Positions 3,100 through 25,378 of a stretch of DNA of 64,000 bases are shown here, in pieces; the first letter of the stretch is position 1; each line of letters starts with the position of its first letter. Source of the stretch: a virus; IMG/VR virus record IMGVR_UViG_3300013117_000371; one strand, written 5' to 3'. The notes beneath the pieces are model-generated. The model saw nothing but the letters and a program-made list of their open reading frames with translations. It was not told the DNA's origin and did not search any database. The position numbers were made by a program, and so were the translations under genes.

Positions 3100-3657
3100 T
3101 CAAGCTTTGCCTCCATTTTTTCGCATTCTCTTGTACGCCCGGTACGCCCCGTACCCCAAGCCTCCCTCCAACGCGAACCGCCCTGGACGGGACACCGGGC
3201 CGAGGGCGTTGACGAGGACGCCCTTCCCGCTGCCTGTAGCTACCCCCACCCCGGCGCCGTAAAGGTGGGCCAGGACCTCCGACGTGCCCACAACGGGAAG
3301 AAGATGGAAACGCTCGTGCTCACGCAAACTGGCGGCTACTTTCTTGCCTTTAAGGCCTCGATGCAAATAGATACCCCTCCCCTTCCCACGACGTACTACA
3401 GTACCAAGCACACCCCGAGAAAACTTATCGGTGACGGCCCGCAACTGCCGCTTACTCCGCCAGAGCCGCACACGGCCAGCAAGCCCGTCCGACTTGTGTC
3501 TCTTGAGCAGCAGGCGAGCTATACGCCCCTGCAACACCTGCCGCTGCACCGCCTTGCTCAACCCTTTTCGCCCCACGTAACGCACCTTGGGGTTGGCTGC
3601 ATGCTTAATTCCGGCAAGCATCCCCTGAAAGACGGCCTCTTTGGCTAAGTCTCCCAA
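3100..3657 (-). CDS. basic putative virion protein with HExxH zincin-like motif
   Basis: REHERFH followed by SEVLAH; N-terminal KEA/KHA motifs; K/R-rich. Confidence 0.55.
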   Translation of the reverse strand: MGDLAKEAVFQGMLAGIKHAANPKVRYVGRKGLSKAVQRQVLQGRIARLLLKRHKSDGLAGRVRLWRSKRQLRAVTDKFSRGVLGTVVRRGKGRGIYLHRGLKGKKVAASLREHERFHLLPVVGTSEVLAHLYGAGVGVATGSGKGVLVNALGPVSRPGRFALEGGLGYGAYRAYKRMRKNGGKA

Positions 3658-3661
3658 TCAC

Positions 3662-4180
3662 CTACCTACGCACTAAAGCAAACCCTGACCGGCTCCGTTC
3701 CGCTTCCTTTCGAGCCTTCTCCGCCAACGCCGTATCCGCTTTGCCGAAAACCTTCCCCCCCGCCCGCAACGCAGACACCCCCGGGATGCCCCCAAGGAAG
3801 TTGGAAAGGATCGGGTGCCGGGGGGTGAAGGACCCGGGCTTGCCCCTGATTTTCTCCTTCCACCCCTTCCCGTGCTTCGCTGCGGCGGCCTGACGCAACC
3901 TCACCGTGGCGCCGATGCCGCTCAGAAGGGAGAGCACCCCCGCTGCCGCAAGGGCCTTGTACGGCGCCCCCCCTTTCAGTTTCTTGAGGGCCCTCACGTA
4001 GCCCTTACGGGTCAAGTGCTTCTTCCGCTTGAGCCGCTGTACCATACGCAGCTGCCCAACTCCGGCGGGGAGTCCCAGGAGAGCGCCTACGCCCAACGCC
4101 TTCGTCGTAGCATCGCTCTCCCCCACTTTCTCAAGGTCTTCCTGCGCTGCCAGGAAACCTCGCATGAATTCATTACTCAT
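3662..4180 (-). CDS. basic putative internal virion protein with hydrophobic Gly-rich segments
   Basis: FMRGF..EDLEKVG N-terminus; ALGVGALLGLPAGVG and ALAAAGVLSLLSGIG segments. Confidence 0.6.
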   Translation of the reverse strand: MSNEFMRGFLAAQEDLEKVGESDATTKALGVGALLGLPAGVGQLRMVQRLKRKKHLTRKGYVRALKKLKGGAPYKALAAAGVLSLLSGIGATVRLRQAAAAKHGKGWKEKIRGKPGSFTPRHPILSNFLGGIPGVSALRAGGKVFGKADTALAEKARKEAERSRSGFALVRR

Positions 4181-4257
4181 TATTCCTCCTGTAACTTCTC
4201 CACTTTCTCCGCACAAGGAGAATACACCGCCGGCGGGGGGTAGTCAACTTCGGGGGG

Positions 4258-4449
4258 CTACTTTTTCTTGAGTTGAGCAGCCAGCTTCCTCCTCAACGCC
4301 AACAACTTGAGCCTCAACGGCACCCCAATCGGCCCCGTGCCCTTGCCTCGGGCGAGGCCTCTACCTTGCCCCCAGCTGCGAAGCTTTTCGCCGGGGGTGG
4401 GGCACCCCGCCAGTTTCTCCAACTCCACCATAAACAGCTTGTCTTCCAT
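4258..4449 (-). CDS. small basic protein with ELEKLA motif
   Basis: MEDKLFMVELEKLAG...GRGLARGKGTGPIGVP; GGAGG RBS. Confidence 0.65.
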   Translation of the reverse strand: MEDKLFMVELEKLAGCPTPGEKLRSWGQGRGLARGKGTGPIGVPLRLKLLALRRKLAAQLKKK

Positions 4450-4462
4450 GACCAACCTCCCT

Positions 4463-4732
4463 TTACTTGAGTTTTAACCCCTTCCACAAGCTCATCCACC
4501 CAGCACGGGTCCAGAACTCTATCCTGTCGAGGGCCGCTTCTGAGCGTACCGTGTCCACGATGCGCACAACGGGGGCGTCTTCCGTTTGCTCCACCTGGTG
4601 CTTGAAGCGTAGCTTCTCCAACGCAATCTGGCTCTGCACCAACCTCAACCGGCGTTCCGCCCAGGTGCGTGAAAACAGCAACCCCAACACTATTACGGCC
4701 AAAATGACTACGGTTACCGCCATGACTTCCAT
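4463..4732 (-). CDS. small N-terminal transmembrane protein
   Basis: AVTVVILAVIVLGLLF helix followed by a charged region; GGAGG RBS. Confidence 0.7.
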   Translation of the reverse strand: MEVMAVTVVILAVIVLGLLFSRTWAERRLRLVQSQIALEKLRFKHQVEQTEDAPVVRIVDTVRSEAALDRIEFWTRAGWMSLWKGLKLK

Positions 4733-4753
4733 GAATCCCTCCGCAAATTAACC

Positions 4754-4884
4754 ATTCTGAGGTCCCCTTAAGGGGACCCCAGACCCTAGTCTGGCGAAAC
4801 AGCCCGGGGTCTGATTCCGCCAATTCTGAGGTCCCCGGCGCTTTAACGGCCCCTACGGGGCCTAGCGCCTTAAGGGGCCCTCAG
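4754..4884. repeat. palindrome and nested-hairpin intergenic cluster
   Basis: Perfect palindrome GGTCCCCTTAAGGGGACC 4761-4778; ATTCTGAGGTCCCC direct repeat at 4754 and 4823; nested stems 4826-4884. Confidence 0.8.
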
Positions 4885-5087
4885 GCCTTTTTTCTGGGGG
4901 CCATCTTCCCCGTAGCGCAGGTTTCGGCTTCCCCCTCCGTGTCGAACGGGCCGTACGTCCCGTCGCCACAGACCACTTGACGGGCGTGAATAAGCAGCCA
5001 CTCCTCCCCGTTCCTCACTGCCCACCACGCCATCTTCCCGGCGGACATGATTGCTACTGCCTTTCCAGCCAACGTTCTTGCCTGCAT
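4881..5087 (-). CDS. hypothetical protein
   Basis: 68-aa ORF with AAGGAGG RBS. Confidence 0.65.
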   Translation of the reverse strand: MQARTLAGKAVAIMSAGKMAWWAVRNGEEWLLIHARQVVCGDGTYGPFDTEGEAETCATGKMAPRKKA

Positions 5088-5120
5088 CCTCCTTACCCCC
5101 TATTGTTCGTGTCCTACTGC

Positions 5121-5153
5121 GAGTGCCCTACTACTATAAGGAGTAGGGCACTC
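5121..5153. repeat. perfect 12-bp hairpin
   Basis: GAGTGCCCTACT-actataagg-AGTAGGGCACTC. Confidence 0.9.
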
Positions 5154-5172
5154 CCTATATTGGGGTGTCTTA

Positions 5173-5310
5173 CTACGGGGACCTCCTGAGGAAGCCCTCA
5201 TTTTCTTCCTCCCCAGTAACCTGGGCAAGGTGTTCGTCGACGGGGGTAAGCGCGGGGGTTGGTCTATTCCCCGTCCCCTGGGTACCCCTTTCCCGTGTTT
5301 CCTCAGTCAT
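5173..5310 (-). CDS. possible 45-aa acidic peptide
   Basis: Read manually: MTEETRERGTQGTGNRPTPALTPVDEHLAQVTGEEENEGFLRRSP; no clear RBS. Confidence 0.35.
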   Translation of the reverse strand: MTEETRERGTQGTGNRPTPALTPVDEHLAQVTGEEENEGFLRRSP

Positions 5311-5366
5311 AGCAAGCACTTAACCCCTGTTTTCCATTAATAAAGGGTCCCCCTCTAAGGTGTAGA

Positions 5367-5403
5367 AGGTGAGCGTATACACACTACGTGTATACGCTCA
5401 CCT
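5367..5403. repeat. perfect 16-bp hairpin
   Basis: AGGTGAGCGTATACAC-actac-GTGTATACGCTCACCT. Confidence 0.9.
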
Positions 5404-5471
5404 CCTCACCTAGTTTTCGCCAAAAGTACCCCATTATGTAGGACACCCCCTACGTTGAAGTATCCTGAAAA

Positions 5472-6815
5472 TCAATTACTGGAGCCAACGCTCCGTACAC
5501 TGCGGGGGTTCTGCCACTGAAACTCAAAACAGCCACGGTCCATCTCCCGCCCACTAATCGGATTGTAATCGAGATCGTGGTCTCGCCCTGTAGCCCACAG
5601 CCCCGTATCCACACAGGGGCTATCCCCCCGCAAATGATAGTCATCCCCGGAAGCATCCACAAACAGCGGATCTACAGACAGATCTGAGGCGTCCACGGGC
5701 CAATTGCCCGAGTAATCACCATTGGCGGCGCAGTTATTAAGACTGACTGCCACAGCACCCACTCCGCACGAGAACTCGTCAGTAGTGCCTCCATCCGAAA
5801 TGCAGTTTTGAACGGTGCGTCCTCCTGCTACGGGAACGTCCCCGATATAGAATCCCCGGGAGCCGCCGACCATAGTGCAGTTCTCAATGGTGCTGTCCGG
5901 AGCCGCCGGGTCTACGAGTGTGCCTCCTATTTCAATCCCCCGGTCTACCGCTCCCACGGAAACGAAATCGTATGCCGACAGGTTGCTGAAATGAACACTG
6001 CGGCCATACGCCCCGAATCCAATGGTACGCCCATCCGCTGTGAGGCCATGCACGGTGCTGTCTGAGATCGTGCCGTACTCGCCGGGCATAGCTGCCCAGG
6101 GCCCTGTGAAATAGATGCCGTAAACGCGGTCCTCGGCGTACGAATTGCGGGCGATGCAGCCCCTTACCGTAGGGGCGACAGTCGTGGAATTGGCGTAGAT
6201 CAAAAAGGCATCTTTCCCCGCCCCGGTGATGGAGGCCCCCTCAACAATCGACAGCTCAATCACGGTGGAGGTGCTGCCCTCACATCTGATCCCGTACCAG
6301 TTCTGGTTGGTGGGGTCTACCGGGGAGTCCACCAGAACTTGCCTGATCGTGTTGCCCGTCCCTGTAATCACCAGAGTGGACTGGCCAACACCGACGGCCC
6401 CGTTGGCAGTCATCCTCAATCCGGCGAAGGTGTTCCCCGTACCCCCCACGGTGAAGGGCGTGGCTCCAATGTAGCCCGTCACCGTCAGCCGCCCTGTGGT
6501 GCTCTGAACGTCCACGTCCCATGTATTCGCTCCCGCTCCCCATGCCATGCAAGTGGCGGTCGCCCCCGTCCCATCGAGCGTGTAGTCCGCACCATAGTGA
6601 CGCCAGGTGATACCGGTGACGCCCACCGGGGTAGTGAGAGACTGGTTCAATTCAGTATAGGGGCCGTACGTCTCTACCGTGTCCCCGTTCACCAGCGCCG
6701 CAAAGCAAGTAGCAAGCGAGGTGTAGTCCTTCCCGGCTCCGACTGTGCGGGTAAGGGCGGCTGCTGATACAGGCAGCAGACAGAGAAACAAGAGTAAGAT
6801 TACCGTCCGTCTCAT
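5472..6815 (-). CDS. signal-peptide, right-handed parallel beta-helix (pectin lyase-like) protein with choice-of-anchor-Q-like C-terminus
   Basis: MRRTVILLLFLCLLPVSAAA signal; RTVGAGKDY start; repeated I.N.T/S strands; DPLFVD...DYHLRGDSPCVDTG. Confidence 0.75.
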   Translation of the reverse strand: MRRTVILLLFLCLLPVSAAALTRTVGAGKDYTSLATCFAALVNGDTVETYGPYTELNQSLTTPVGVTGITWRHYGADYTLDGTGATATCMAWGAGANTWDVDVQSTTGRLTVTGYIGATPFTVGGTGNTFAGLRMTANGAVGVGQSTLVITGTGNTIRQVLVDSPVDPTNQNWYGIRCEGSTSTVIELSIVEGASITGAGKDAFLIYANSTTVAPTVRGCIARNSYAEDRVYGIYFTGPWAAMPGEYGTISDSTVHGLTADGRTIGFGAYGRSVHFSNLSAYDFVSVGAVDRGIEIGGTLVDPAAPDSTIENCTMVGGSRGFYIGDVPVAGGRTVQNCISDGGTTDEFSCGVGAVAVSLNNCAANGDYSGNWPVDASDLSVDPLFVDASGDDYHLRGDSPCVDTGLWATGRDHDLDYNPISGREMDRGCFEFQWQNPRSVRSVGSSN

Positions 6816-7207
6816 GGCATCCCTCCAGGCGGCTCAACCGGGTCCGGCAGTGGTTCAGTATCCGGCATTCCGGGCACCCATACCATTTCGCCCTCTCGAT
6901 ACTCCCACCGTTGGAGAGGGACATCATCCGGCTCGAAACCCGCCGGCAACTCAACTTGGGCAACGCCAAAAGGAGAGACTCTTTCCGCCGGTCCCCACTC
7001 GTGGTCTTTTGGCTGTACGGTAACCACCAGCCTGGAATCTACCAGGAAGCAGATGGAGTGAGTGTACTGCTCAACTGCCCCTATTTCCTCTACGGCATCA
7101 ACACTGCCGGAAACAACCAGGTCGGCCGGGGCTGTTACGACGGCTACAGCGCCCAGAATACCGGCGATGCCCAAGGCTGCTATCGTGGCTGTTTTGCTCT
7201 TCTTCAT
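6812..7207 (-). CDS. signal/membrane-anchored hypothetical protein
   Basis: MKKSKTATIAALGIAGILGAVAVV N-terminus; coupled overlaps on both sides. Confidence 0.7.
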   Translation of the reverse strand: MKKSKTATIAALGIAGILGAVAVVTAPADLVVSGSVDAVEEIGAVEQYTHSICFLVDSRLVVTVQPKDHEWGPAERVSPFGVAQVELPAGFEPDDVPLQRWEYREGEMVWVPGMPDTEPLPDPVEPPGGMP

Positions 7208-8211
7208 CACAGGACCTCGTCACTGGCGTTATAGCTCTTGATGCGGACCAGCTTACCTTGAGCTGGAGCTACTGTGGTCGTCGGGACAATAACGATGAAG
7301 TATTTTGCCCTCGACCGAATCAACGAGTGCGCAACAGTGATAGTGGCGTAGTTCCTGGCCACTGTGAACGAAGGCACGAGCAAATACCCCACACTCATGT
7401 AGTCAGCAAGAGCGAAGGCCCCCGGCAAAACGTCCATGCCCAAGACCATGTAGGTGAACTGGTAGTTAGCAGCATCGGCCGCAATGCCGGTGATTGATAT
7501 GTCGTGAAACTCCTTGGTGGTCGGCACTTCGTAGACCTTGCCCAGAATCGGGACTGCTGGACCACCCGCCACGAAGTCGGCAACGGTAATGGTGCCCTTA
7601 TCCCCATCCGCCCCACCCGGCGCTGTGGGTTCGAGCCAACTTGCATCTTGCCCGGCGTCCAAACTGTCAACCAGTATCCCACGTGCGATATTCACAGGCA
7701 TGGACGCTCCCACAGCAGCAGCGCCCATAACAGGAGTTTTGCTGTCGAGGCTCGTAGTGTCCCCTGCAATGACTCCCGTGTCTGTATCAATGGTTGCCAG
7801 GGTAGCTTGGGTTGCGAGTGTTGCAGCTGTTGCTTCTGTTGCCAGCGTTGCAGCTGTTGCTTCAGTGCAGACACCGAGCAAGGTGGCTTCAAGGGCAAGT
7901 GTGCTCAAAGTTGCTTCTGTTCCGAGCGTCCCAACTGTTGCCTCCGTTGCCGCACTTACCAGGTTCCCCGAACCATCCTCCTGTACTACAGAGAGCGCAC
8001 CGGTACGACTGTCGATTGGGTTGTTCGCCCCATCGTGCACATTGGCGTCGCTGCCGGCGGCCGGGGATGAGCACTCAACCTTGGGCCACCCGGTGACGGG
8101 GTCAAATTCCAGGTAGTGCTGAGTGCCGTCCGTACCCCGAACAGATCCAATGTTCTGCCCGTAGGCTGTAGCGGAAAAAAGCACGATAAGCAGTGCAATA
8201 ATGTACCTCAT
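7207..8211 (-). CDS. signal-peptide protein with ATEAT/TLA repeats (putative fibre or surface protein)
   Basis: MRYIIALLIVLFSATAYG signal; tandem (A)TEATxxTL repeats at about 7790-7950. Confidence 0.7.
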   Translation of the reverse strand: MRYIIALLIVLFSATAYGQNIGSVRGTDGTQHYLEFDPVTGWPKVECSSPAAGSDANVHDGANNPIDSRTGALSVVQEDGSGNLVSAATEATVGTLGTEATLSTLALEATLLGVCTEATAATLATEATAATLATQATLATIDTDTGVIAGDTTSLDSKTPVMGAAAVGASMPVNIARGILVDSLDAGQDASWLEPTAPGGADGDKGTITVADFVAGGPAVPILGKVYEVPTTKEFHDISITGIAADAANYQFTYMVLGMDVLPGAFALADYMSVGYLLVPSFTVARNYATITVAHSLIRSRAKYFIVIVPTTTVAPAQGKLVRIKSYNASDEVL

Positions 8212-8247
8212 GAAACCACCTCCTCTAAAAATGTGTGTGTGTACGTC

Positions 8248-9503: not shown

Positions 9504-10332
9504 GTTGGGCCTCCGTAATGTCTGCCAGCATGGCAATGCCGCGAGTGAGCCCGGATATGGACTCGAGTTCAGTATAGGGCACCGCTTCGATCCGCTCCCG
9601 CGTGGGCTTGACCAGCTGTACCCGGGCAATGAGTTTGCGTATCACATCCATTGGGCCCAGTTGCTCATTGGCCGCAGTGAAGATGTGCATCCACCGCTTC
9701 GCCGCCGCCGAGCCGGCGATCGCATCCCGGGTGACCACCGCCTCCCGGTACTTGGCCGCCGCCGCTGCCCGCATGAACTTCAACTCCTCCTCCTTGTCGA
9801 TGTCCACTACCGCTCCGGAGTAGAGCAGGGCCACCTGATGCCCCATGCTGTAAAGGACTCGGTAAGTAGTCCCCGCCCGATGTAGCTCAAACAGCATGTC
9901 CAGTTCCCATCTGGAGAGGGACTTCAAGTCCCAAACCAGGTGGGAGTACATCCGGATAACCGACTCGGGGATGACCTTGCGGTGCAGCTCCATGACAGCG
10001 TTGCTGACCAACTGGTGATTGCCGTCTGCGGCGAGCAGGGACTCCACCGCAAACCGGAGCTCCCCCGAGTCCACAACGGCGCGGACCGTGCCGCACATGG
10101 CATCGTCGTGCCATACCCTGGACAAGAGGTTGTTGGCCACGAAATTGCTGACCGTTCGATCGTTGGTCAGGGGCTGTTGCACCCTTACATACAGGTCCTT
10201 AACATACCTCTCCAAGGCCTCTGACGGGTCGGTCTCCACGTACCCCAACTGCGCCAGGACGCGTAGGACATACTTCTGCGTCATCCCCTTCAGGAATAGG
10301 AGCAGAAGGTACCGTTCGCAGGGCAACTTCAT
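9472..10332 (-). CDS. hypothetical protein
   Basis: 286-aa helical ORF, ATGA-type coupling to upstream gene. Confidence 0.75.
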   Translation of the reverse strand: MKLPCERYLLLLFLKGMTQKYVLRVLAQLGYVETDPSEALERYVKDLYVRVQQPLTNDRTVSNFVANNLLSRVWHDDAMCGTVRAVVDSGELRFAVESLLAADGNHQLVSNAVMELHRKVIPESVIRMYSHLVWDLKSLSRWELDMLFELHRAGTTYRVLYSMGHQVALLYSGAVVDIDKEEELKFMRAAAAAKYREAVVTRDAIAGSAAAKRWMHIFTAANEQLGPMDVIRKLIARVQLVKPTRERIEAVPYTELESISGLTRGIAMLADITEAQRAKEDAESSP

Positions 10333-12299
10333 GCTTGGCCGGCCCCCATACTATCCAGCTGGGTCAACTGGTCGGCTACCTTCTGCACGTTCTTGGTCGC
10401 CAAGAACGCGGTATCGGGGTCGACCGGCTCTAGCCCGATCTGCGCCGCCAAGGTGAGCTTGGCTAAGCTGTCAGCCAAAGCATACAAGGCAGGCAGCTGC
10501 TTGACAAACATGTCCAAAGTCTCACTCCCCATCAACTGGAGGGCCATCAGCTCGTCCTGCTGCTGGGGAAGCGCCGCCGCCAACTTGAGGAAACCCAAGT
10601 CCACGTCGTACTCAGTGTTCACCGTAGCCAAAGTCCTGGTCACCAGGAGGTCCTGCGGCCCCCTCCTGGAAGCCGCCACCTTCTGTAAAGCAGTGGGCTC
10701 GCCCACCCCCAGGGCCCCCAGGATGAACACAGCGTCGGGCAGGGATACAGCCTGCTTCTCCAGCGGCTCCCCTTCCCACTCGGCGTGCTCCACAGGCATT
10801 CCGGAAAGCGAGTAACCCAAGTGGTTCCTGGTCACGGTCACCCGCCTGGTGGGGAAGGAGCGGGACGCTACCTTCTCCAGGCTCATGTCGAAGTAGGACG
10901 CATCCTCCGTTACAAAGAATACCTGGGCGTCCTTGGGCAGGTACAATCGCCCGCTAAGCAGCAGCGGCTTCACCACCGTGGAGGAAATAACCACATCGGC
11001 CGCTTGCTCCGGGTGGTCCATGATCGAGTGCGTGGAAAAGTGGCGGCCCAGGTAAACCCGTCCCTTCTTGATCACGCCCAGCGGGCGGTAGATGGTGTTC
11101 TTTCCGGCAACCACCACCATCTTCTTGCCGGGGTGCCGCCACATGTCCTCCACCGAAGTCATCTTGATCGCCGGAGCCCGCCCTTTTACGTACTTGGTGG
11201 TGGGGTGCTCAGTCAACCTGTAAATCACCCCCTTGCTGGAGGTCGCCACGAGCCGTTCGGGGTCGTCGTCGCCCCACCCGATTTGCTTGAGCACCCGCAT
11301 GTTGAACTTGTTGCCGTTCTGGGAAGCTTTGATGCCCATCCCAGGCCTCAACTCACCTCGTTCGTACAGCGTCACAGTCCTTGCGGCCTGCTTCTCCAAC
11401 TCGAACACGCCGGGGTCCCTGACGATGGTGGCGAAGGGCTTACGGGAGAAGGCGTCCATCACCGCAGCCGGCACTTTACCTACCGGCAACTCCCGCACGG
11501 CGGGGCGGAAATCGCCGGCGTACGCTGTTTTCTCCATCACCCCAAACGGCACCCGCTCAAACTGCACTACCTCCTCCGGCACGGCGAGCAAGTCGCTCAC
11601 TTTGCGGCCGAAAGGGGTACCACTGAGGTAATCCAACAAGGACGCTTGCTTGGGGAGCTCCCCCAACACGGCCCGGCGGGAGTTGTTGGCCGAGTTGTCG
11701 ATGTTGCCGCCGTCCGGGCCCTTGGCGATGTTCTCCTGGTCCGGGGCGGTCTGCTGAGTCGGCATCAATTTCTTATTGGAGGAGGCGCCGATCACCGGCG
11801 CCGGCGCCCCAACCAGGTGGGAAAAGCCCATCTCCGTAGTAGGTATGGCGTAGTACTCACCGTCTATGGCGACCGCCACAGGGGGCTCCAGGGTGCCGTC
11901 GTTCACCACGAAGGGCACCGCCACGTTGCGCTGCTGGGGAGTAGCAATCATCACGCTGCCGACAATGATGTTCCCCTCGTCCTTGTCAATGCGGGGCTCC
12001 ATAGGCAACTGCGAGAGGTAGTCGAACTCGTTGACCACGGCCTCCAACGCTGCGGCCATGACAGCGTTGTGGTCCCGCATGTTCAGCGTCATCCGGCGGT
12101 TGGGGAAGGCGCCGACCTTGGGGCCTACCCATGGTTGCTGCCCCTGCTGGTGTTGGGGAACACCCGCCTGGCCCGGGGGTACCAGGCCAGCGTCCATAGG
12201 CGGCGAGGCGGGGGCCGCCAGGTCCGCCGAAGGCTGCGGTTGCTGCACGTCGGCCCTCTTCTCCATCCCCGGGTTCAGTTCCTCGAATACATGCTCCAT
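10329..12299 (-). CDS. large putative head/prohead protein with many (E)KxA motifs
   Basis: MEKRA, PKQA, MEKTA, LEKQA, LEKVA, LEKQA, QKVA, LKLA, QKVA; Q/P-rich N-terminus. Confidence 0.65.
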   Translation of the reverse strand: MEHVFEELNPGMEKRADVQQPQPSADLAAPASPPMDAGLVPPGQAGVPQHQQGQQPWVGPKVGAFPNRRMTLNMRDHNAVMAAALEAVVNEFDYLSQLPMEPRIDKDEGNIIVGSVMIATPQQRNVAVPFVVNDGTLEPPVAVAIDGEYYAIPTTEMGFSHLVGAPAPVIGASSNKKLMPTQQTAPDQENIAKGPDGGNIDNSANNSRRAVLGELPKQASLLDYLSGTPFGRKVSDLLAVPEEVVQFERVPFGVMEKTAYAGDFRPAVRELPVGKVPAAVMDAFSRKPFATIVRDPGVFELEKQAARTVTLYERGELRPGMGIKASQNGNKFNMRVLKQIGWGDDDPERLVATSSKGVIYRLTEHPTTKYVKGRAPAIKMTSVEDMWRHPGKKMVVVAGKNTIYRPLGVIKKGRVYLGRHFSTHSIMDHPEQAADVVISSTVVKPLLLSGRLYLPKDAQVFFVTEDASYFDMSLEKVASRSFPTRRVTVTRNHLGYSLSGMPVEHAEWEGEPLEKQAVSLPDAVFILGALGVGEPTALQKVAASRRGPQDLLVTRTLATVNTEYDVDLGFLKLAAALPQQQDELMALQLMGSETLDMFVKQLPALYALADSLAKLTLAAQIGLEPVDPDTAFLATKNVQKVADQLTQLDSMGAGQA

Positions 12300-12308
12300 C
12301 TGTCTACC

Positions 12309-12617: not shown

Positions 12618-12680
12618 GTGCGAGTCCTCCGGGTGTACCTCGAGGTAATCATAGCAATGACCGGGCTACTTTACAAGAGG

Positions 12681-16600: not shown

Positions 16601-19600
16601 CATGGTGGGCTTGGTCAATTCACCGTTGGAACGAGCCAGGATCTCCTTATTGGTCATGGGTAAGAGCCACATCTCGTCCCCTTCCCTCTCCAGCTTCAAC
16701 CCGGCCGCATTCAGGTAGGCTTCGAACTTGTGGTACACCTTGGGGACCCGAGGAGGGGGTAGGGTTTGCCCCAGTTGAATGGCGGTCCACACTGCATCGT
16801 TGTCCTTGTCACCACGATAGCTGAGCACCTCACGCATGTTCTCGCCAGCACCGTGTGCAAGTAGGGCCATGGCCATCCCCCGGTCGGCAGACTGGGCTTT
16901 CCCTACTTCGCCTTCTCCGGCCTCCCCACCTTTTACCGGGGTACCTTCAGCGGAGTACGCGTAGGGGTAGCCGGCACCTCGAGCATTCATCTTGTGCTCG
17001 GCCTGGTGGATGAGCTTCAGCAAGTACTGGTACCCCACCAGGACGTCCCCCACCTTCTTGCCGTCAACGAAGACCTCCTCTGTGTCGGACATCCCGTTCT
17101 TCTTCAGGAGCTCCGCCACTTCCTCAACGAAGTCCCGCTCGTAGCTGTAAGCTTCGATGTGCTTCTTGATCGGCCTGCGCTCCTCCCCCCTCCCAACCCA
17201 GTAGGTGCGCTCATGCGCCGGGACATCAACAATACGGACACCTCCGGAGAAGCTGCTGACCGCAATGGGGTGCCCTTTCTTCTTGGCAACTTTGCCTACC
17301 AGAGTCTCGTACATCTGGGAGGGATTTGTACGCCCCCCGATTCCGACAGGATTAAGCAAGACATCAAGCGGTCTCCCGTCCCTGGTGGTGGGCATCTCCG
17401 AATCCGGTTTGATCTTTCCGCATACGCCCTTGTTGCCATGCCGGCCACTGAGCTTGTCGCCCAGCTTGGCCACCTCTTCCACCGCCACAGCGATGTAGTA
17501 CCCATCCGGCGTCTTCTCCACCTCTTGCACGATTCCGGGGGTCTGCCGATCCCACACCACCGAGGCGTCTCTGAGCGTCTCCATCCCCAACTTCTTGCCC
17601 AGTAGGCGCTCCTCTTTGGACATGGCCTGCTTCTTCACCCCGGCCACCAGGATTTGCCCCTCTCGGACCAAAGTACCTGGCTTTACCACCCCATCCTCCA
17701 ACGTCGCCCGCTCCTCCACCGACAGCGGCCGTACAGTGCGGGAGAACAACGCGGCGTCCACCTCAGCGTCTTCGCTATAGTGCTTCTGCACAATAGCTGT
17801 AGAAGTGAGCTTGGCGGCAAAGGACTCGCTGATGGTGATGGCGTCCTCGAAGTTGAACCCGTCGGCCATGTAGCCTACCCGGGCGTTCACCCCCATGGCG
17901 ATGAGCCCGTCCCGAGTAGTGTTGGCCTCTGTGAGGCGGTCGCCCTTCTTGACCTTGTCCCCCTTCTTCACTACGGGCTCGTGGTGCTCCACCGATCGGC
18001 CGTCGTTCAAGGGGAACATATGGGGGATGAAGACCTTGTGCTTCCGCCCGTCCTCCCCGTTCACCAGAATGCGGTCTTTGTTCACGGAAACCACGGTTCC
18101 GTTCACGGGAGAGCGCATCACCACCATGTCTCCAATTACTCGCTCCACTATTCGACCGTTGTCCGTGGCCGTCAGTACTAGCGGAACCTCCCGGTCCCGC
18201 AAGGCAATAGCGGAAGTCAAATGACGGTACACCATCTCCAAGCGGTTGGGGGAGGTGGCAGTGGCAAACGGGGTGGACAGGGTCACCTCTGAGAAAGTAG
18301 TAGCCGGGTCGATAACGTACTTCACGCTCCCGGCCGGCACTTCGACTACCTTGCCGCCCTTGATGGCCCGTACGTTCCGCCCAGCCTTCTTTGCCTGAGC
18401 ATACTCATCAGTGAGCGCGTACGGGGTATTGAGCAGCTCCCGCACCGTGAACGTGTGGGGCTGGCCCGTCTTCACTTCGCGTACCCTGAGAGCAGGCTCC
18501 CGGTTCTTCACCGTACCACCGATAGAAAGGGGGTACACCGCCCCCGCTTTCTCACTCTCCGGCGTCACCACCGGGTCGATGACGCCCACAAACGTGGGGT
18601 AGACGGAGCGGGCCGCCTCAGTGATGGCGTCGGGGTTGGAGATGCCCCCCTCCCCCATGATGCTGACCCGGCCCACTGCGCCCAATTCCGCATAGGGGTT
18701 GGTCTGCGGCGCCCGGTCGGCCAGGCCGGCGGAGGTGAAAATGCTCCACACCGACTTGTCGTACGGGGAGGACCCACCCATGATAGCCGTCACATCGTCA
18801 CTTTTGGCCATTCGGTACTTGAGCTTCCCGGTCACTCCCGCTCGGCTGATCCGCTCATGCACGAACGCAGGCATGTTCATGAACCAACGGTACTCCAACG
18901 AGTCTCTCCGGTCCGGTGTGTCCTTCCCCCGCACCACGTTCAGCAACTTCCGAGAAGAGAGGAGCATCACCTGGGAGGAGACCTTGGTAGTCTTCAACCC
19001 AATAGTCTTCTCCGGCACTTCAGGAGTGCTCATCTCCATGGCGGAGAACATCTCCCGGACCAACAGGGGGGCCCCGCTCTCGTTGGAGTCCACCCCCGCC
19101 GCTGCCAGCAACCGGACCAACTTGGGCTTAGTCGCTGCATTCTTTTGGAGCACTTCTGCACCCCAGGCGGACCGCATGTCACCGTCATCCACCCCCAAGG
19201 CCTTCATGACATGGTAAAGAGGGACATTGGTGTCCCCGTACTTCAAGGTGTAGAGCTGCCGCTCCGGGCTGTACAGGACCTCAAAGTTCCTCCCCCGGGA
19301 GAGGTTGAAAGAGGCAACGGTATCCCCTGTCTGCTTGCGGTGAATAAACACCCCCGGCTTCAGCCGGTTCTGAGTAATGGGGTAGTACTCACTGTTATTG
19401 ACGATGTAGCTCCACCTGGAAGTAGGCACGGGCACATTCACCAAGCGCAGCCGTTGCTTGTCTACAAGCCTCCCCTCTTCATACAGCGCCACGGTCCCCC
19501 GAATACCTACGCCCCACTTCTTCCCCTGCACCCGAGCAGCTTTCTGGGCGCTGACATCAGTGGGGTCCTTGGGGGTTTCCACCTCTACTTCGGACAGCCG

Positions 19601-19702
19601 CAACTCCCTCTTCCCGTACTTGACCGGGAACTGCCCCTCAAGGGCGCGCATGGCAGCGTTCAAGTTCTCCGAGTAGTCCCGGGGGAGCGTCCTGTCCGGC
19701 AT
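13664..19702 (-). CDS. rpoBC: DNA-directed RNA polymerase, fused beta-beta' single chain
   Basis: beta: GDKLSGRHGNKGV, LLNPVG, YLLKLIHQAEHKMNAR; beta': GHIRL, IPPVFRP, SGRAVIVPG, RDPVLH, catalytic NADFDGD (15554-15574), RSPLSC..C..CFG, AAQALGERGTQLTLRSFHLGG. Confidence 0.95.
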   Translation of the reverse strand: MPDRTLPRDYSENLNAAMRALEGQFPVKYGKRELRLSEVEVETPKDPTDVSAQKAARVQGKKWGVGIRGTVALYEEGRLVDKQRLRLVNVPVPTSRWSYIVNNSEYYPITQNRLKPGVFIHRKQTGDTVASFNLSRGRNFEVLYSPERQLYTLKYGDTNVPLYHVMKALGVDDGDMRSAWGAEVLQKNAATKPKLVRLLAAAGVDSNESGAPLLVREMFSAMEMSTPEVPEKTIGLKTTKVSSQVMLLSSRKLLNVVRGKDTPDRRDSLEYRWFMNMPAFVHERISRAGVTGKLKYRMAKSDDVTAIMGGSSPYDKSVWSIFTSAGLADRAPQTNPYAELGAVGRVSIMGEGGISNPDAITEAARSVYPTFVGVIDPVVTPESEKAGAVYPLSIGGTVKNREPALRVREVKTGQPHTFTVRELLNTPYALTDEYAQAKKAGRNVRAIKGGKVVEVPAGSVKYVIDPATTFSEVTLSTPFATATSPNRLEMVYRHLTSAIALRDREVPLVLTATDNGRIVERVIGDMVVMRSPVNGTVVSVNKDRILVNGEDGRKHKVFIPHMFPLNDGRSVEHHEPVVKKGDKVKKGDRLTEANTTRDGLIAMGVNARVGYMADGFNFEDAITISESFAAKLTSTAIVQKHYSEDAEVDAALFSRTVRPLSVEERATLEDGVVKPGTLVREGQILVAGVKKQAMSKEERLLGKKLGMETLRDASVVWDRQTPGIVQEVEKTPDGYYIAVAVEEVAKLGDKLSGRHGNKGVCGKIKPDSEMPTTRDGRPLDVLLNPVGIGGRTNPSQMYETLVGKVAKKKGHPIAVSSFSGGVRIVDVPAHERTYWVGRGEERRPIKKHIEAYSYERDFVEEVAELLKKNGMSDTEEVFVDGKKVGDVLVGYQYLLKLIHQAEHKMNARGAGYPYAYSAEGTPVKGGEAGEGEVGKAQSADRGMAMALLAHGAGENMREVLSYRGDKDNDAVWTAIQLGQTLPPPRVPKVYHKFEAYLNAAGLKLEREGDEMWLLPMTNKEILARSNGELTKPTMFSGKTGKAKAGELFDSKITGGLDGSGWGHIRLPYEVPNPVFISPISKILGLTRAHVIAVGSGQKGLQYEDGKYTAVDGPGNTTLGKALRELDVRKELSKGGDPLRQRFLRALDELGEGADVYMLRNVPVIPPVFRPVTSMKGRLIISDLNLLYGDLIATGNSLKGLKKETPELMAFEEGRNARGKLYADVAALFGLGKTEHYREAKGIFQQLHGTGSVKLGMVHRNIMRRRQDLSGRAVIVPGPGLHLDEVGVPREMLREMYQPFIVRELATLGLTPLVAKKLTEDRPEDPLVEAALKRAIADRPVWLKRDPVLHKFGVMAFFPRPTNENVIELHPLVTSVYNADFDGDTCSLFVPVSDEAVIEAKRSMPSRLLRSPSSGDYLYTPTHEALMGLFDMTAVRGKKAKKGFGDLKKAIAAQKRGEIGVTDRIRVAGKETTLGRSMIQGLLPPEMASFLAVGAPQLDKKRLQALAETLGVVSPARYGAVMDGLKNLGFEYSYRSGLSVSLGDLTPLRAERRRYLRQLEGAKNKEKAVRDVGRALERQQYPPGSTFTRMNRAGLKPAKANLQQMLLSPLFGDWGEGNLVPVRRGYAEGMNSMDYWSTAPTARKAVVQSVRSVRIPGDITKQMLAATMSSVIATRDCGSTGSVRPVSDAVDRVLGESTAGVRAGTIITPAEVDIFRRKGVKQVRVRSPLSCRNGEGICARCFGQTEHGPAQLGDNVGIKAAQALGERGTQLTLRSFHLGGFGELPPLDQVTNLLRLPQNLPGKATLSHLAGKVASVEKVPDGTYVHVTGSKGKGKYFAPVGRAVVVKRGQSVKLGEALTTGLVDPREVLAVTKSLPAAQRSMADSLMAVYGKYGIDPRNVEVLVRAVTNLAVVDDPGSSNKIKGEYIPYYQARAWNRSHDNSLRVTPVLKGVTALPQHRDTWLESLGYRGVKQTLIRAGATGERAEVHGLHPVPAWLSGAEFGKPKREGRPGY

Positions 19703-20967: not shown

Positions 20968-21052
20968 AAAAGAGAGCCCTCACAGCCCGACCAGGCGACG
21001 CAAACTGGTGGGACTGAGAGACATCGGCAACCTCAACCTATGAGGTAATCCG

Positions 21053-21154
21053 ATGTTCAACGCTGTTCTACTGGGGCTGGAGGTGGGCTGGGAGCTGTGG
21101 GAGCTAATCGACGGGTTTCTGGACCCGGAAGGTGAAATTCCACTGTTCGGCTGA
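21053..21154 (+). CDS. 33-aa small protein
   Basis: Read manually: MFNAVLLGLEVGWELWELIDGFLDPEGEIPLFG; GAGG RBS. Confidence 0.5.
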   Translation: MFNAVLLGLEVGWELWELIDGFLDPEGEIPLFG

Positions 21155-21162
21155 CTTCCGGC

Positions 21163-21210
21163 AAAGGGAGGGGGACGGTTCTGGGGACCGTCCCCCTTTC
21201 CCCCTTTTTT
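21163..21210 (+). terminator. intrinsic terminator between convergent genes
   Basis: GGGGGACGGT/ACCGTCCCCC stem followed by a pyrimidine run and T6. Confidence 0.7.
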
Positions 21211-23146
21211 AGCTGTACCCCGCTCTGCGTGGCGGGAGCTGCTCAGGGAGGGGCCTTTCAATGACCGGCTGCATGGGGTTGAATTGCTCCATCAGCGCCC
21301 GGTGCATATCAATGTTCTTGTTGGCGATGTCCTGCAACACCATAGCCCGCTGCAAGGGGGACTGATGCTTCAGCGCCATGCTGATCTTGTGTACTGCCCC
21401 CGGGTCCACACCTTCGGGAGGCACCATAGCGAGTATCTCCGGCGTTCCCATCACCCCGTGCGTTCCCGACAACTGGTCGGGGGGAGGCGCTAAGGGGGAT
21501 TCCCCCGGTTGAGCCTCCTGGCCGGGTTGAGGCTGTCCCTCTCCAGGGGCTCCTCCCGGCGGTGCTTCCTGGCCAGGTTGAGGCTGCCCAGGTTGAGGCT
21601 GCCCCGGTGGAGGGCCGAGCCCCAATTCCTCCTGCAACCGCTGAATCGCCGCCTGGTTGCGCACTCGCATCTTCTGCTCCTCGAGTTGTGCTTCCCAAAC
21701 GGCCTCACTGTCAAGGCCCATTCGCTCGTGCACCACCCGGTACGCCAGGCCGCCCTGGGCCGCCATGCCGCTCAGGATGGAGAGCTTCTGGACCTCGTCC
21801 CCGGACATGATGGGTTGGAGGAAGACCTCGTTGGGCAGCCCCCAGCCCAGAATGGAGGCGCACTTCTTCATCACGAACCGAATGAACCGCTTGTGCAAGT
21901 GCATCAACGCTATGAACTCGGTGTCCAATGCCCGCAGAGAATGGGAAGCGCCCGACCACGACTTGCCGCCCCACACGAACTCGACCGGTGTGCGCGCTCC
22001 AATGAGGATACGCTCCATCAGCAACCTGACCTGCTGGTCAGGCATGAGCAGGCGATTGGGGTCCCCGAACTGGAGCAGCTGCGACGGGATGGGGGAAATG
22101 GCCACCGAGGCCGGGTCCTGCTCCCAAGTCTCCAGCTGGCTGCGCATCTTGTCCATCCACATCTTTGCGGCGCCGGACAGGTTCACACTGTGCCCAGCAT
22201 CTCCGGAAGCGGCCGGGGTGATCATCCGGAAAGGGATGAGCTGAGTCATCACCAGCGCCTCCTCCGCTTTCAAAACAATCTTCATATGGAAGCAGTCAGG
22301 CAACGTCCCGGCCAACGTCGGCCAGGGCCACCCTTCCCTGGTCTGCACGGACTTCTTGTAGGTGGAAGGAGTCAGCGCTGTTTCCTCAAAGATGAACACC
22401 TGGTCATTGAACAGGTTCATCTTCTTATTACGGAGGATGGCCTCAACAAACTCCTGCGGGGTGTCGGCAATGGCCTCCCGCTTCCCTAACTTGACCTGGT
22501 TCCGAAACTCTTTGGAGAAATCCACCTGGTACTTAGGCTGCAACGAGAAGCCGACGCGCCTCACCGACAGCTCAAAGGGGTCCCACCGCCGTAGGGTGAT
22601 GCGATTCCCCGCCTTGATGTAGAAATCCCTGACCACTGCTCGTTGGTAGCTCTTGCAGACCACACAACGCACCCGGAAGGACTTGTCCCACGGGTCCACC
22701 TTGAACTTGGCGATCTTGGCTAAGTGAGGCTTCCCGCACTTCTTGCAGAGGAAGTACTTGTTGAACGGGGCGATCACCGACACTGCAGCGTGCCCGTACA
22801 CATAGAGGTCAAGGTTGATCTGCACCCGCAACGCCTGAATATCCAAAAACTCCGTCAGGAGCTCCACCCAGTCGTCTATTTCAGACTCCCGAAGCCCGCC
22901 CCGCAAAGTGAGATCGGTAACCGGGTACAATGCTTTGCGGACAATGGCAGCATTGAGTAGGGGGTTGAAGATGGCGAAGTAGGCGCACCACCGCCATACC
23001 TCATGGAGGGTGTCGGGGAGTACTGTACTGGCGTAATCCAAAAAAGGCGACGGGGGCTTGCTCAACGTCAGCCGGGACCGATCGTAAGCGGCCAGTTTGG
23101 AAGGCGGCCGCCTCTGCGGCAACGATTTGACTCTGCCTTCACCCAC
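21209..23146 (-). CDS. putative portal protein with Zn-ribbon insertion and PGQPQ-repeat tail
   Basis: WRWCAYFAIFNPLLNAAI..YP N-terminal pattern typical of large-phage portals; CKKC...CVVC; RILIGARTP; low-complexity P/G/Q C-terminus. Confidence 0.65.
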   Translation of the reverse strand: MGEGRVKSLPQRRPPSKLAAYDRSRLTLSKPPSPFLDYASTVLPDTLHEVWRWCAYFAIFNPLLNAAIVRKALYPVTDLTLRGGLRESEIDDWVELLTEFLDIQALRVQINLDLYVYGHAAVSVIAPFNKYFLCKKCGKPHLAKIAKFKVDPWDKSFRVRCVVCKSYQRAVVRDFYIKAGNRITLRRWDPFELSVRRVGFSLQPKYQVDFSKEFRNQVKLGKREAIADTPQEFVEAILRNKKMNLFNDQVFIFEETALTPSTYKKSVQTREGWPWPTLAGTLPDCFHMKIVLKAEEALVMTQLIPFRMITPAASGDAGHSVNLSGAAKMWMDKMRSQLETWEQDPASVAISPIPSQLLQFGDPNRLLMPDQQVRLLMERILIGARTPVEFVWGGKSWSGASHSLRALDTEFIALMHLHKRFIRFVMKKCASILGWGLPNEVFLQPIMSGDEVQKLSILSGMAAQGGLAYRVVHERMGLDSEAVWEAQLEEQKMRVRNQAAIQRLQEELGLGPPPGQPQPGQPQPGQEAPPGGAPGEGQPQPGQEAQPGESPLAPPPDQLSGTHGVMGTPEILAMVPPEGVDPGAVHKISMALKHQSPLQRAMVLQDIANKNIDMHRALMEQFNPMQPVIERPLPEQLPPRRAGYS

Positions 23147-23660
23147 CGTGCGCCTCCATCTGGGCGATCAACACCCGGTTCAACTTCCCCACATACTCCG
23201 CAGCTTCCTCGCGGAGACCGGGGGCCCTTATTGGTACCTTTACATACTCCGAAGACTTTTTCAACGGTTCCGGTAAAGTCCCCGCCCCATGCAGGTCGCT
23301 CACGGCCGCTGCGTACCGATAAACTTCGGGGGCGAACTGCTTATCCGTGTGCAACGCGAGCAACATCACCATCTGCGCCCCACCCACCAACTCAGGGATG
23401 CTCGGGGGCTCCAACAGCAAGAAGTTAGGGGTCCTGCCGTTGAGTGCCTGCACCACGTGAGAAAAGACCCGAAAGTCATCAAATGCGGCGTGGGAACAGC
23501 GAACGGTCTTTGCCCCTTGAATCTTGTTCCAATTGCCCTGGGAGCAAGGGCCGACAAACGACCTCAGCTTCGCTGCCCCCCACTCAACCCACCCAGCACC
23601 CCCTTCGTCCAAAAGGAACGCCAAGAACACTGGGTGGAGTGCGGGATCAGTCAGCTTCAC
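23139..23660 (-). CDS. hypothetical protein
   Basis: 173-aa ORF coupled to the portal gene. Confidence 0.7.
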   Translation of the reverse strand: MKLTDPALHPVFLAFLLDEGGAGWVEWGAAKLRSFVGPCSQGNWNKIQGAKTVRCSHAAFDDFRVFSHVVQALNGRTPNFLLLEPPSIPELVGGAQMVMLLALHTDKQFAPEVYRYAAAVSDLHGAGTLPEPLKKSSEYVKVPIRAPGLREEAAEYVGKLNRVLIAQMEAHGG

Positions 23661-23669
23661 CTGTCGTCT

Positions 23670-24425
23670 CTACTCGGCGCCCTCGGCTTGGGCAAGGTGG
23701 TGGAACTGCATGAGCTGGCCGTCGTTCCACACTTCAACCACAAGGGTGAGGGGCAAGAAAGCGTCCAGCGCCGTGCTGAACTGGTCGGCCAGGATGTGCA
23801 GCATGGCCCAGTTCGGCTCCAACCGGGAGAAGTACAGGTCGGCGAGCATCGCCATTCCCGCCACGCCGGTTCCCCAGGTGCCCGGGGCAGTGATGGCAGT
23901 GGAGGCCATGACGTCGGCGGCAACCAAGGTGACCGCATCCGTGCCGCTCACGGCAAACATCTCCCGCAAGGTGGCGTCCGCCAGCAAGGCGGTGCGCAAC
24001 CCAGCCAAGGTCCCGGACTCGTCGTTCGGGATGGAAATGGTCAAGGTCTCGGTGGCAGCGGCCCACGCCAAAACAAAGGCGGCGCCGGCAGCAACGTTGA
24101 TGACCAGGTTGTAGTCCTTCCCCGTGTTGCCCTCCAAGGCGTAAAGGCGGAAGCCGGCCTTCGGGGCCCAGTAACCCAGGCCATAGTTGATCTGGTAGGC
24201 TCCGATGTAAATCTCGTGCGAGGCCACAGCGTCCACAATGATCGGGTGCTGGTCATCCCCGGCGGGCCCGTCCCCCAGGCAGAAGAAGGGGATGGTGTTC
24301 CGCTGGAGGCCACCCTCGCTGTTCATGAACGCCCGGTCGATGTAGCTTCGGACGTCCTTCAGGCGCTCAGTGAACCAGCCGTGGTAACTCATCGACAGGA
24401 ACGCTCCAAAGTTGTTGCTCGGCAT
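23670..24425 (-). CDS. putative virion protein
   Basis: 251-aa Ala/Gly/Thr-rich ORF in the structural operon. Confidence 0.65.
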   Translation of the reverse strand: MPSNNFGAFLSMSYHGWFTERLKDVRSYIDRAFMNSEGGLQRNTIPFFCLGDGPAGDDQHPIIVDAVASHEIYIGAYQINYGLGYWAPKAGFRLYALEGNTGKDYNLVINVAAGAAFVLAWAAATETLTISIPNDESGTLAGLRTALLADATLREMFAVSGTDAVTLVAADVMASTAITAPGTWGTGVAGMAMLADLYFSRLEPNWAMLHILADQFSTALDAFLPLTLVVEVWNDGQLMQFHHLAQAEGAE

Positions 24426-24427
24426 GT

Positions 24428-25378
24428 CTACTCCTCCATGATAGTTGTGAGCACCCTACGGTGCTCACGGCTCAGGATTCCTATGTTCCCCGTGGCTACG
24501 GCGTTGCGCACGGTGGCGCCCATCACCGCCGCCACTTTCTCCAAGGTGTCTTCAGGGACCTCCTCTTTGGGCGGCACCTCCCGGTGACCGAACGTGGTCA
24601 AGAAAGCGTCCGGGTGCCCCTTCAAGCACACCTCCTGGTCCAACTGGTCCAACATACTGGCGTGCTTCTCCAAGTCCTGCTCTCCCAGGATGGTGTCAAA
24701 AAGGCTCAGCGCATCCGGCCGATGGGCCTCTAAGAACGCACGGCGCCGATCGAGCAGGAACTGGCGACTGGTGTTCTCATCTACGGCAGCGTACTTGCTC
24801 AATGGGTCGGGGGCCTCTACTCCGTGCATCAGCAGCTGCAAAGCCACCGACCGCCTCTCGCAGGGGCGCAAAGCGCCTATCTGGCCGGCCAAGCTAGCGG
24901 CTAGCTTCTCCAGTTGGTCTCTTGAGTCAAAGCCGACGTTGGCCCCCCGCACCACGATGAAGTTTTTCGGCTGAGGCCGAGCCTTTGGCTCTCGTACCTC
25001 GTCAAACTCCGCTGAGGCAGTCTTGGAAAGGTCGGCCCCGCCCTTCACTTTGAGCCCGAACTTCCTCAACGCCGTCAAGAGTCGAGCGCTGACCTCATCC
25101 CTGACTTCTTCGGGGAGCTTCTTGCCCGTGTGTAGGAAATAGAACATGGAAACCAAGGCGTTGGCCTGGTCCGAAATCGGGTAGTACCTTCCCACAACCT
25201 TGCCTTTCTGTTTCCGCACCAGGGCGAACTCCTGGTCGGGGAACTTCTTATGGTCCGCCTTGTCTACCCGCACCCCCTTAGAGATCCCACGAGCGGCGAC
25301 CTTGGCAAGTTCCCTTCCCTCACCCACAGTCTGGGCCAAGAACTCACCGCCGTCATCGTAATAATCCAACTGTATCAT
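24428..25378 (-). CDS. (E)KxA-motif protein with DUF6582-like segment
   Basis: Start MIQLDYYDDGG behind GGAGG; PDQEFAL...RYYPISD..NA...YF...ARL..ALRKFG; KVA, KTA, EKLA, EKHA, EKVA. Confidence 0.6.
   Translation of the reverse strand: MIQLDYYDDGGEFLAQTVGEGRELAKVAARGISKGVRVDKADHKKFPDQEFALVRKQKGKVVGRYYPISDQANALVSMFYFLHTGKKLPEEVRDEVSARLLTALRKFGLKVKGGADLSKTASAEFDEVREPKARPQPKNFIVVRGANVGFDSRDQLEKLAASLAGQIGALRPCERRSVALQLLMHGVEAPDPLSKYAAVDENTSRQFLLDRRRAFLEAHRPDALSLFDTILGEQDLEKHASMLDQLDQEVCLKGHPDAFLTTFGHREVPPKEEVPEDTLEKVAAVMGATVRNAVATGNIGILSREHRRVLTTIMEE

Follow-up and report, generated by a model that had tools for sequence, protein, structure and literature searches.

Recurrent hydrophobic-x-Lys-x-Ala sites in head-module proteins of an almost wholly uncultured phage clade: a candidate recognition signal for a gp21-fold maturation protease

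The 64,000-nt stretch of DNA analyzed here (the window), taken from the IMG/VR virus record IMGVR_UViG_3300013117_000371, belongs to an uncultured phage of ~184 kb, and the longest contig known to carry the gene for its 656-amino-acid (aa) protein measures 183,892 bp. The window is phage-like, has a GC content of ~60%, and is divided into a minus-strand arm (1-25420) and a plus-strand arm (25675-64000), the latter with replication genes for a family-A DNA polymerase, a DnaB-like helicase, a Toprim primase, a RecA-like protein and an AAA ATPase. Our subject is a short motif of the minus-arm proteins, Phi-x-K-x-A, in which Phi is a hydrophobic residue two positions ahead of the Lys, and which a first-pass annotation of this DNA had put forward as a possible code for head maturation or packaging. 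The observation is real and strong, but within the window it comes down to two multi-site proteins and three small basic proteins.

The larger of the two multi-site proteins is a 656-aa multi-domain virion protein (10329-12299, minus strand), a homologue of the abundant virion protein gp218 of Salmonella phage Arash. It carries ten Phi-x-K-x-A sites: MEKRA at residues 12-16 (12252-12266), LPKQA at residue 215 (11643-11657), MEKTA at residue 255 (11523-11537), LEKQA at residue 301 (11385-11399), LPKDA at residue 454, LEKVA at residue 474 (10866-10880), a second LEKQA at residue 513 (10749-10763), LQKVA at residue 538 (10674-10688), FLKLA at residue 570 (10578-10592) and VQKVA at residue 638 (10374-10388), all on the minus strand.

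The second is encoded by a 330-aa open reading frame (ORF) upstream of the portal gene (24428-25420, minus strand), with six sites of the form Phi-x-K-x-A-[A/S]. These are LAKVA at residue 38 (25295-25309), LSKTA at residue 131 (25016-25030), LEKLA at residue 170 (24899-24913), LSKYA at residue 207 (24788-24802), LEKHA at residue 250 (24659-24673) and LEKVA at residue 293 (24530-24544), again all on the minus strand, and five of the six are spaced ~40 residues apart. The frame is 330 aa long from its first ATG and 316 aa long from Met15 (25378), the position at which a 51%-identical homologue starts, and judging from this alignment Met15 is probably the true start. That homologue, P0005, keeps LAKVA, LSKTA, LEKLA, LEKHA and LEKVA, and has LAKYA in place of LSKYA. 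At the same pre-portal position in G001, a complete (terminal-repeat) IMG/VR genome of the wider clade (174,678 bp, 68% GC), lies a homologous 482-aa protein with five sites (hhalign probability 98%). The 330-aa protein matched no Pfam or PHROG family, and the ESM Atlas returned viral hypothetical clusters together with a weak lead to DUF6582; Arash gp199 was considered as a homologue and rejected.

Three small basic proteins, encoded on the minus strand between 3100 and 4455, each carry one site, which ends an N-terminal leader. In the 65-aa protein (4258-4455; 15 of 65 residues are K or R), the leader ends in LFMVELEKLA, followed by G, with the motif at residues 12-16. The leader of the 184-aa Gly/Ala-rich protein (3662-4216; 35 K+R vs. 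13 D+E) ends in FMRGFLAAQEDLEKVG, followed by ES, and bears a Gly variant of the motif (DLEKVG), while the very basic 185-aa protein (3100-3657; 40 K+R vs. 8 D+E) starts with MGDLAKEA and continues to FQGMLAGIKHA, followed by A; neither KEA nor KHA is significant taken alone. A leader ending in the motif is thus common to four unrelated proteins of the window, these three and the 656-aa protein, in which the site is at residues 12-16. All of the strings that the first-pass annotation had listed in these five ORFs are present in the sequence.

Expected counts were derived from composition-preserving shuffles of each protein. Measured in this way, Phi-x-K-x-A occurs 10 times in the 656-aa protein against 1.0 expected and 6 times in the 330-aa protein against 0.65 expected (p <= 0.0003 for both), and all K-x-A in the two proteins (10/10 and 6/6, respectively) belong to the longer form with its hydrophobic residue. 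The strict form [LM]EKxA was found nine times in the ~19,800 residues of called proteins, compared with 0.8 expected, the 656-aa protein accounting for five of them, the 330-aa ORF for three and the 65-aa ORF for the remaining one; for [LIM]EKxA, the shuffles gave 5 vs. 0.036 in the 656-aa protein and 3 vs. 0.028 in the 330-aa protein. A six-frame scan of the whole window located 11 [LIMFV]EKxA, nine of them in frame within called genes.

Elsewhere in the window the counts were those of chance. The remaining minus-arm proteins, pooled, hold 9 Phi-x-K-x-A vs. 9.6 expected; the portal protein holds 2 vs. 0.84, which is no enrichment, and the RNA polymerase has 11 K-x-A vs. 11.4 expected. The bare K-x-A occurs 107 times in the whole window proteome vs. 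95 expected. As the first-pass annotation had remarked, the motif is inconspicuous in the replication enzymes (15 Phi-x-K-x-A in the plus arm vs. 14.2 expected). Its description of the motif as recurring in many structural-arm proteins was too broad, since the portal, the RNA polymerase and the tail-like proteins that the minus arm also encodes are not enriched; what is left of the proposed enrichment over a composition-matched background is that of the 656-aa and 330-aa proteins, with the rest of both arms at chance. A further LEKLA reported at 55463 has to be set aside, as it falls in an off-frame ORF (55277-55618, plus strand) that overlaps two called genes and lacks the coding pattern of GC content at third codon positions (GC3).

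The motif is not a by-product of repetition. A DNA-level repeat is ruled out, since the Leu, Lys and Ala codons vary between sites and no 9-mer is seen more than three times on a strand, and internal protein repeats were rejected as a source in the 656-aa protein, whose five predicted domains show no similarity to one another (z <= 2.1). Common descent of the 656-aa and 330-aa families was rejected as well, since the hhalign alignment between them was limited to the motif itself (probability 0.6%).

Nearly all of the sites in both multi-site proteins are kept in close homologues (51-58% identity). A profile search recovered 306 remote homologues of the 656-aa protein, mostly 630-720 aa in length, unnamed, and located on contigs of 170-190 kb. 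Among 124 full-length representatives of this family, K-x-A was found at 3.4 times expectation (1671 vs. 494), Phi-x-K-x-A at 6.6 times and Phi-E-K-x-A at 18 times, compared with 0.89 times for the reversed motif, A-x-K. The family logo reads Phi-[E/V]-K-[L/T/V/I]-A-[S/A/G], and the residue at +3 after the Lys is Ser in 26% and Ala in 17% of cases. In an alignment of 106 family members (~20% identity, mean column identity 15%), the Lys and Ala at 14/16, 217, 257/259, 476/478, 540/542 and 572/574 are among the best-conserved columns, with K572 conserved in 100/106 sequences and A574 in 105/106, while the sites at 303, 515 and 640 are lineage-specific. Sites are conserved across genomes ranging from 53 to 68% GC.

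The AlphaFold model of the 656-aa protein resembles beads on a string, with a mean predicted local distance difference test (pLDDT) score of 77.7 and low-confidence segments at residues 1-63, 171-219, 302-308, 421-429, 469-479, 565-572 and 581-588. In this model, five of the ten motif Lys residues (K14, K217, K303, K476 and K572) lie inside or abut low-pLDDT segments. A motif Lys is present in the disordered N-terminus, in the 171-219 linker and in each of the short linkers 302-308, 469-479 and 565-572, these last three accounting for 4% of the chain; K257 is placed in a strand, and K515, K540 and K640 in helices. The model, taken together with the leaders of the four proteins, agrees with the earlier remark that sites lie near N-termini and at domain boundaries. 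Selection on the motif acts at the protein level rather than on DNA or repeats, given the varied codons, the reversed motif that is not enriched, the conserved K and A columns and the linker location.

No known family accounts for the 656-aa protein. Foldseek of the model returned no PDB match at E <= 0.001 and, in BFVD, one match to an uncharacterized viral homologue; the family profile aligned to PDB sequences only as coiled-coil noise, and megablast and tblastn searches with the gene and protein against 50,697 phage records gave no match. PHROG and Pfam scans of 30 family members returned nothing useful (cluster names were all "hypothetical"), and the close alignment A1, scanned against IMG/VR, gave no match.

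The only cultured relative that we examined, Salmonella phage Arash (OQ632216.1; PMC10585845), was found by tblastn with the window RNA polymerase. It is distant, with 21% identity in the portal and 28% in the RNA polymerase, and it differs from the window phage in having its polymerase split into beta and beta'. It resembles the phages studied here in gene order, which runs from portal gp204 and RNA polymerase gp206 through gp216, helicase gp217, gp218 and gp219-225 to the major capsid protein (MCP) gp226, with the motif-dense proteins lying within gp220-gp225. The match of gp218 to the 656-aa family spans 527 columns (hhalign 94%, E 1e-7), and gp218 is among the most abundant proteins of the Arash virion, with 1149 spectra, 36 unique peptides and 89% coverage (PMC10585845). 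The RNA polymerase is also abundant in purified Arash virions, and the Arash paper mentions neither the motif nor processing (PMC10585845). In the Arash head module we counted 10 sites in gp220, 6 in gp222, 8 in gp223 and 6 in gp225, and the MCP has DQGLVKEA at residue 25. Residues 67-210 of gp222 match the PHROG "head maturation protease" family phrog_18299 (E 2e-6), and two of its sites, at 28-33 and 216-221, bracket this region. Arash gp222 had no Pfam match at E <= 0.05 and so was not placed in Peptidase_S77 (PF03420); PF03420 was likewise not detected in the Arash genome as a whole, a search in which the control genomes gave no match either. The Arash RNA polymerase beta subunit (gp206) begins MPKSA, with K-x-A at its extreme N-terminus.

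In G001, the homologue of the 656-aa protein has 12 sites, and several proteins encoded beside the MCP and protease have 4-5 each. REGIEKTA occurs at residue 20 of the G001 MCP and DADMEKVA at residue 27 of a pilot-like minor head protein, immediately ahead of the PHROG domain of the latter; many small proteins have the motif inside their first 40 residues. Across the motif-rich proteins and the G001 head module, Phi-x-K-x-A stands at 6.2-9.5 times expectation, while the T4-type [LI]xE stands at 0.67-0.98 times and the phiKZ-type [ASG]xE at 0.69-1.07 times; a cleavage motif of either known type was therefore rejected for these proteins. The earlier proposal of a Lys-containing consensus unlike those of T4 and phiKZ thus fits the contrast between enriched and non-enriched motifs, but in the window it concerns few proteins.

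The G001 head protease, P0159 (L011:5698-7284), is a homologue of Arash gp222 and has more than 160 homologues of its own. Its sites at K40, K269/A271 and K483/A485 are invariant or nearly so in 41 homologues, in which His144 and Ser200, candidate catalytic residues, are also invariant. In its AlphaFold model (pLDDT 81), confidence is low at residues 1-5, 9-44, 269-297 and 477-490, and the three sites fall exactly within the last three of these segments. The modelled domain between the sites superimposes on T4 gp21 (5jbl_A) with Z 8.8 and a root-mean-square deviation of 3.1 A over 143/165 residues, and the next structural matches are herpesvirus proteases (Z 5-7.4). By this model, the head protease of G001 has the T4 gp21/assemblin fold. 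The first-pass annotation had expected an uncharacterized protease to be encoded elsewhere in the genome; relatives do encode a head protease with the motif at its domain boundaries, but its gp21 fold makes it a protease of a familiar type. We also observed in the clade protease an invariant Cys cluster (SMGC...C..C...C.H) within the gp21-like domain and a helical C-terminal domain of ~180 residues, and some homologues are fused to, or interrupted by, an intein or other domains (PF18823 and PF14528 among the matches).

At least 433 IMG/VR contigs, many of 170-199 kb, encode a relative of the P0159 protease, from which we conclude that the clade is large and environmentally widespread, with hardly any cultured member. 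Statistics on the head module were drawn from 58 non-redundant IMG/VR protease neighborhoods. In these loci, the forward motif is present at 3.1 times expectation (1541 vs. 493) and the reversed motif at 1.02 times; by class, enrichment reaches 4.0 times in proteases, 6.0 times in the 656-aa family, 7-12 times in scaffold-like proteins and 2.8 times in other ORFs. The protease has an N-terminal leader with the motif in 52/58 loci. Among 33 non-redundant MCPs, which in the relatives are small and HK97-like (weak matches to PF05065 and phrog_2522), 28 have G-x-E-K-x-A at about residue 25, exactly 10 residues before a conserved R-D-x-L-R-E, and three more have it without this anchor.

Taken together, we consider it probable (roughly 0.6) that Phi-[E/V]-K-x-A-[S/A/G] is the recognition signal of the clade's head-maturation protease, its specificity shifted from Glu to Lys/Ala, and that it works with a leader like the capsid-targeting sequence (CTS) of T4. 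This protease would be a serine protease of the T4 gp21/herpesvirus-assemblin fold whose preference moved from Glu sites (L/I-x-E in T4, A-x-E in phiKZ and SPN3US) to Lys/Ala. The motif would have two uses. In one, it would end a short, partly helical N-terminal leader (F/L...G-Phi-E-K-x-A) that tags proteins for the prohead core and is then trimmed, much as the T4 CTS is; in the window, the tagged cargo would be the 656-aa protein and the three small basic proteins. In the other, repeated sites inside large core, scaffold or ejection proteins would mark the linkers at which these are divided, domain by domain. Cleavage at the linkers would release five or more pieces from the 656-aa protein, which may be an abundant internal or ejection protein, and peptides of ~40 residues from the 330-aa protein, which may belong to the core or be scaffold-like. 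Both the cutting of the sites and the loading of proteins into the capsid by the leader are inferred from the parallel with T4, SPN3US and phiKZ, on which the reading of the motif as a Lys/Ala cleavage signal with a CTS-like leader is built. Sites of herpesvirus assemblin have the form hydrophobic-x-Ala and are cut before Ser. By analogy, the bond cut here could be the one after Ala (the assemblin A/S precedent) or the one after Lys (the T4 Phi-x-E analogy), of which the former is favored by that precedent and by the small residue that follows Ala.

Several points weigh against this interpretation. No mature N-terminus, semi-specific peptide or gel shift is on record for any member of the clade, and the Arash proteomics consists of per-protein coverage, with supplementary gene tables without peptide lists (PMC10585845). 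In the model of the 656-aa protein, two conserved sites may be inaccessible, as K257 is part of a strand and K540 of a helix, both confidently folded. The motif-dense Arash proteins are found in virions at 80-100% coverage (PMC10585845), and any fragments are therefore not expelled; the same virion list includes obvious contaminants (PMC10585845). In addition, the link to a protease comes from genes of relatives rather than from protease or capsid genes of the window genome itself, and the conserved leader of the MCP could be a permanent structural N-terminal arm.

The main competing explanation, which we think unlikely, is that the motif is a short linear motif for docking only, which together with the leader helix binds the scaffold core, the portal or the inner capsid surface, and so loads or anchors proteins and is not scissile. 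This would suit the conservation of the leaders beyond K-x-A (LNELF...LD..EG.EKIA in capsid proteins and LF......EKxA in the 656-aa family), the AlphaFold2 models of several sites as short isolated low-confidence helices, as for binding motifs, and the retention of the motif-dense Arash proteins in the virion. It fits poorly, however, with a motif that brackets the protease's own catalytic domain at three linkers and that occurs in up to 12 copies per protein at domain boundaries, a pattern typical of processing rather than of docking, as in T4 gp22 and the SPN3US gp53 propeptide; moreover, targeting and cleavage coexist in a single T4 leader.

We regard it as improbable that the conserved Lys instead serves a covalent chemistry, such as an isopeptide cross-link or a lysine modification, or is a recurring element of structure, for instance at the start of a helix. 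In favor of this, no residue of the motif is better conserved than the Lys, two of the conserved sites lie inside folded elements, and capsids of the HK97 type use Lys cross-links, but the sites occur whatever the structural context (in disordered N-termini and linkers as well as in a strand and in helices) and on proteins as unrelated as a capsid protein, a protease, basic cargo and scaffold-like proteins, and their bias toward N-terminal leaders and the small residue after Ala are better explained by protease subsites. Chance, finally, would appeal to L, E, K and A being common helix formers, so that LEKxA recurs in helical proteins, and it does describe the bare K-x-A in the window proteome and the weaker KEA and KHA examples. 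This reading is refuted by the shuffles for [LIM]EKxA, by the reversed-motif control, and by the maintenance of sites at ~20% identity across genomes of widely differing GC content.

The comparison with T4 is instructive in both directions. T4 gp21 cuts after L/I-x-E, removes 10-residue targeting leaders, fragments gp22, gp67 and gp68, and trims itself (PMC9026906), and SPN3US gp245 behaves like gp21 in head processing (PMC10052503). Similar to T4 are the gp21 fold of the clade-member protease, the short leaders ending in a site on unrelated small basic proteins (in T4, the CTS of IPI-III and Alt), the multi-site scaffold-like proteins, and a protease with sites at both ends of its catalytic domain. 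In contrast to T4, the site has no requirement for Glu and [LI]xE is not enriched, the clade protease (490-530 aa) misses Pfam Peptidase_S77 in addition to having the Cys cluster and the large helical C-terminal domain, the capsid protein is not gp23-like, and cleavage is here predicted from sequence.

With phiKZ (gp175) and SPN3US (gp245), the clade would share a large size and the packaging of a multisubunit RNA polymerase and numerous ejection proteins, along with multi-site propeptides, a protease that cuts itself, and abundant internal proteins as the main substrates (PMC10052503, PMC5694885). Their consensus is A/S/G-x-E, unlike the one described here. The genomes studied here are smaller (~175-185 kb), a single-chain beta-beta' RNA polymerase adjoins the portal, and the clade is a different one, with the 656-aa protein unmatched among the phage records searched. 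Herpesvirus assemblin shares the fold family and the Ala followed by Ser or Ala, as at its scissile bond; in its terms, however, the Lys would be P3 and the hydrophobic residue P5, and it comes from another host domain, with homology at the level of the fold only. In a limited literature search, we found no published Lys/Ala consensus for a head protease.

The other genes of the minus arm include the portal gene (21209-23146), assigned by BLASTP against Arash portal gp204 (E 9e-35), and, adjoining it, a gene for a single-chain beta-beta' RNA polymerase of 2012 aa (13664-19702; Pfam Rpb2_6, Rpb1_2 and others). Of ten structural-arm proteins scanned against PHROG and Pfam, the RNA polymerase was the only one with a match. 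The polymerase is of the multisubunit type, has the NADFDGD signature, and has its nearest phage matches in Arash (split beta and beta') and in Vibrio phages D181, D148 and D69, in which a homing endonuclease interrupts the gene. Neither this polymerase nor that of G001 has the leader motif, so the tag does not explain how the polymerase is packaged. Between the 330-aa gene and the portal lies a 251-aa ORF (23670-24425, minus strand) whose GC3 of 0.86, unsurpassed in the window, suggests high expression; it matched nothing in Pfam or PHROG and contains no K-x-A. At 5472-8211 on the minus strand are a 447-aa protein with a signal-like N-terminus and a beta-helix-like Gly/Thr-rich sequence, and a 334-aa protein with TEATAATLATEATAATLATQATLA repeats; neither contains the motif, and both are probably fiber or receptor-binding proteins. 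In the plus arm, a 921-aa ResIII/DEAD-type helicase (44683-47448, plus strand) contains an intein with a LAGLIDADG homing-endonuclease domain (Pfam Intein_splicing and LAGLIDADG_3). The segment 30528-31754, inside this otherwise plus-strand arm, has long ORFs on both strands (393 aa on the plus and 386 aa on the minus), and the 393-aa plus-frame ORF has no Pfam match.

The general principle of head processing is already well known from T4, phiKZ and SPN3US, and what would be new here is the specificity: if the sites are cut, they would define a third specificity class of T4-type head proteases, after L/I-x-E and A-x-E. At even odds, in our estimate, this clade of ~170-190-kb phages packages its own RNA polymerase and uses a retuned gp21-fold protease with a portable F...G-Phi-E-K-x-A leader, such that the set of capsid-loaded or injected proteins can be read from sequence, with the 656-aa family as a polyprotein-like internal body protein that is cut into at least five domains. 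Were our reading of the motif true, it would provide a sequence rule predicting which proteins of an unstudied clade are capsid-loaded and probably injected, among them the basic DNA-associated proteins and the 656-aa family. A defined leader and site could also be used to tag cargo for loading, a use to which the T4 CTS has been put, and the existence of a cultured member, Arash, makes these predictions testable at the bench.

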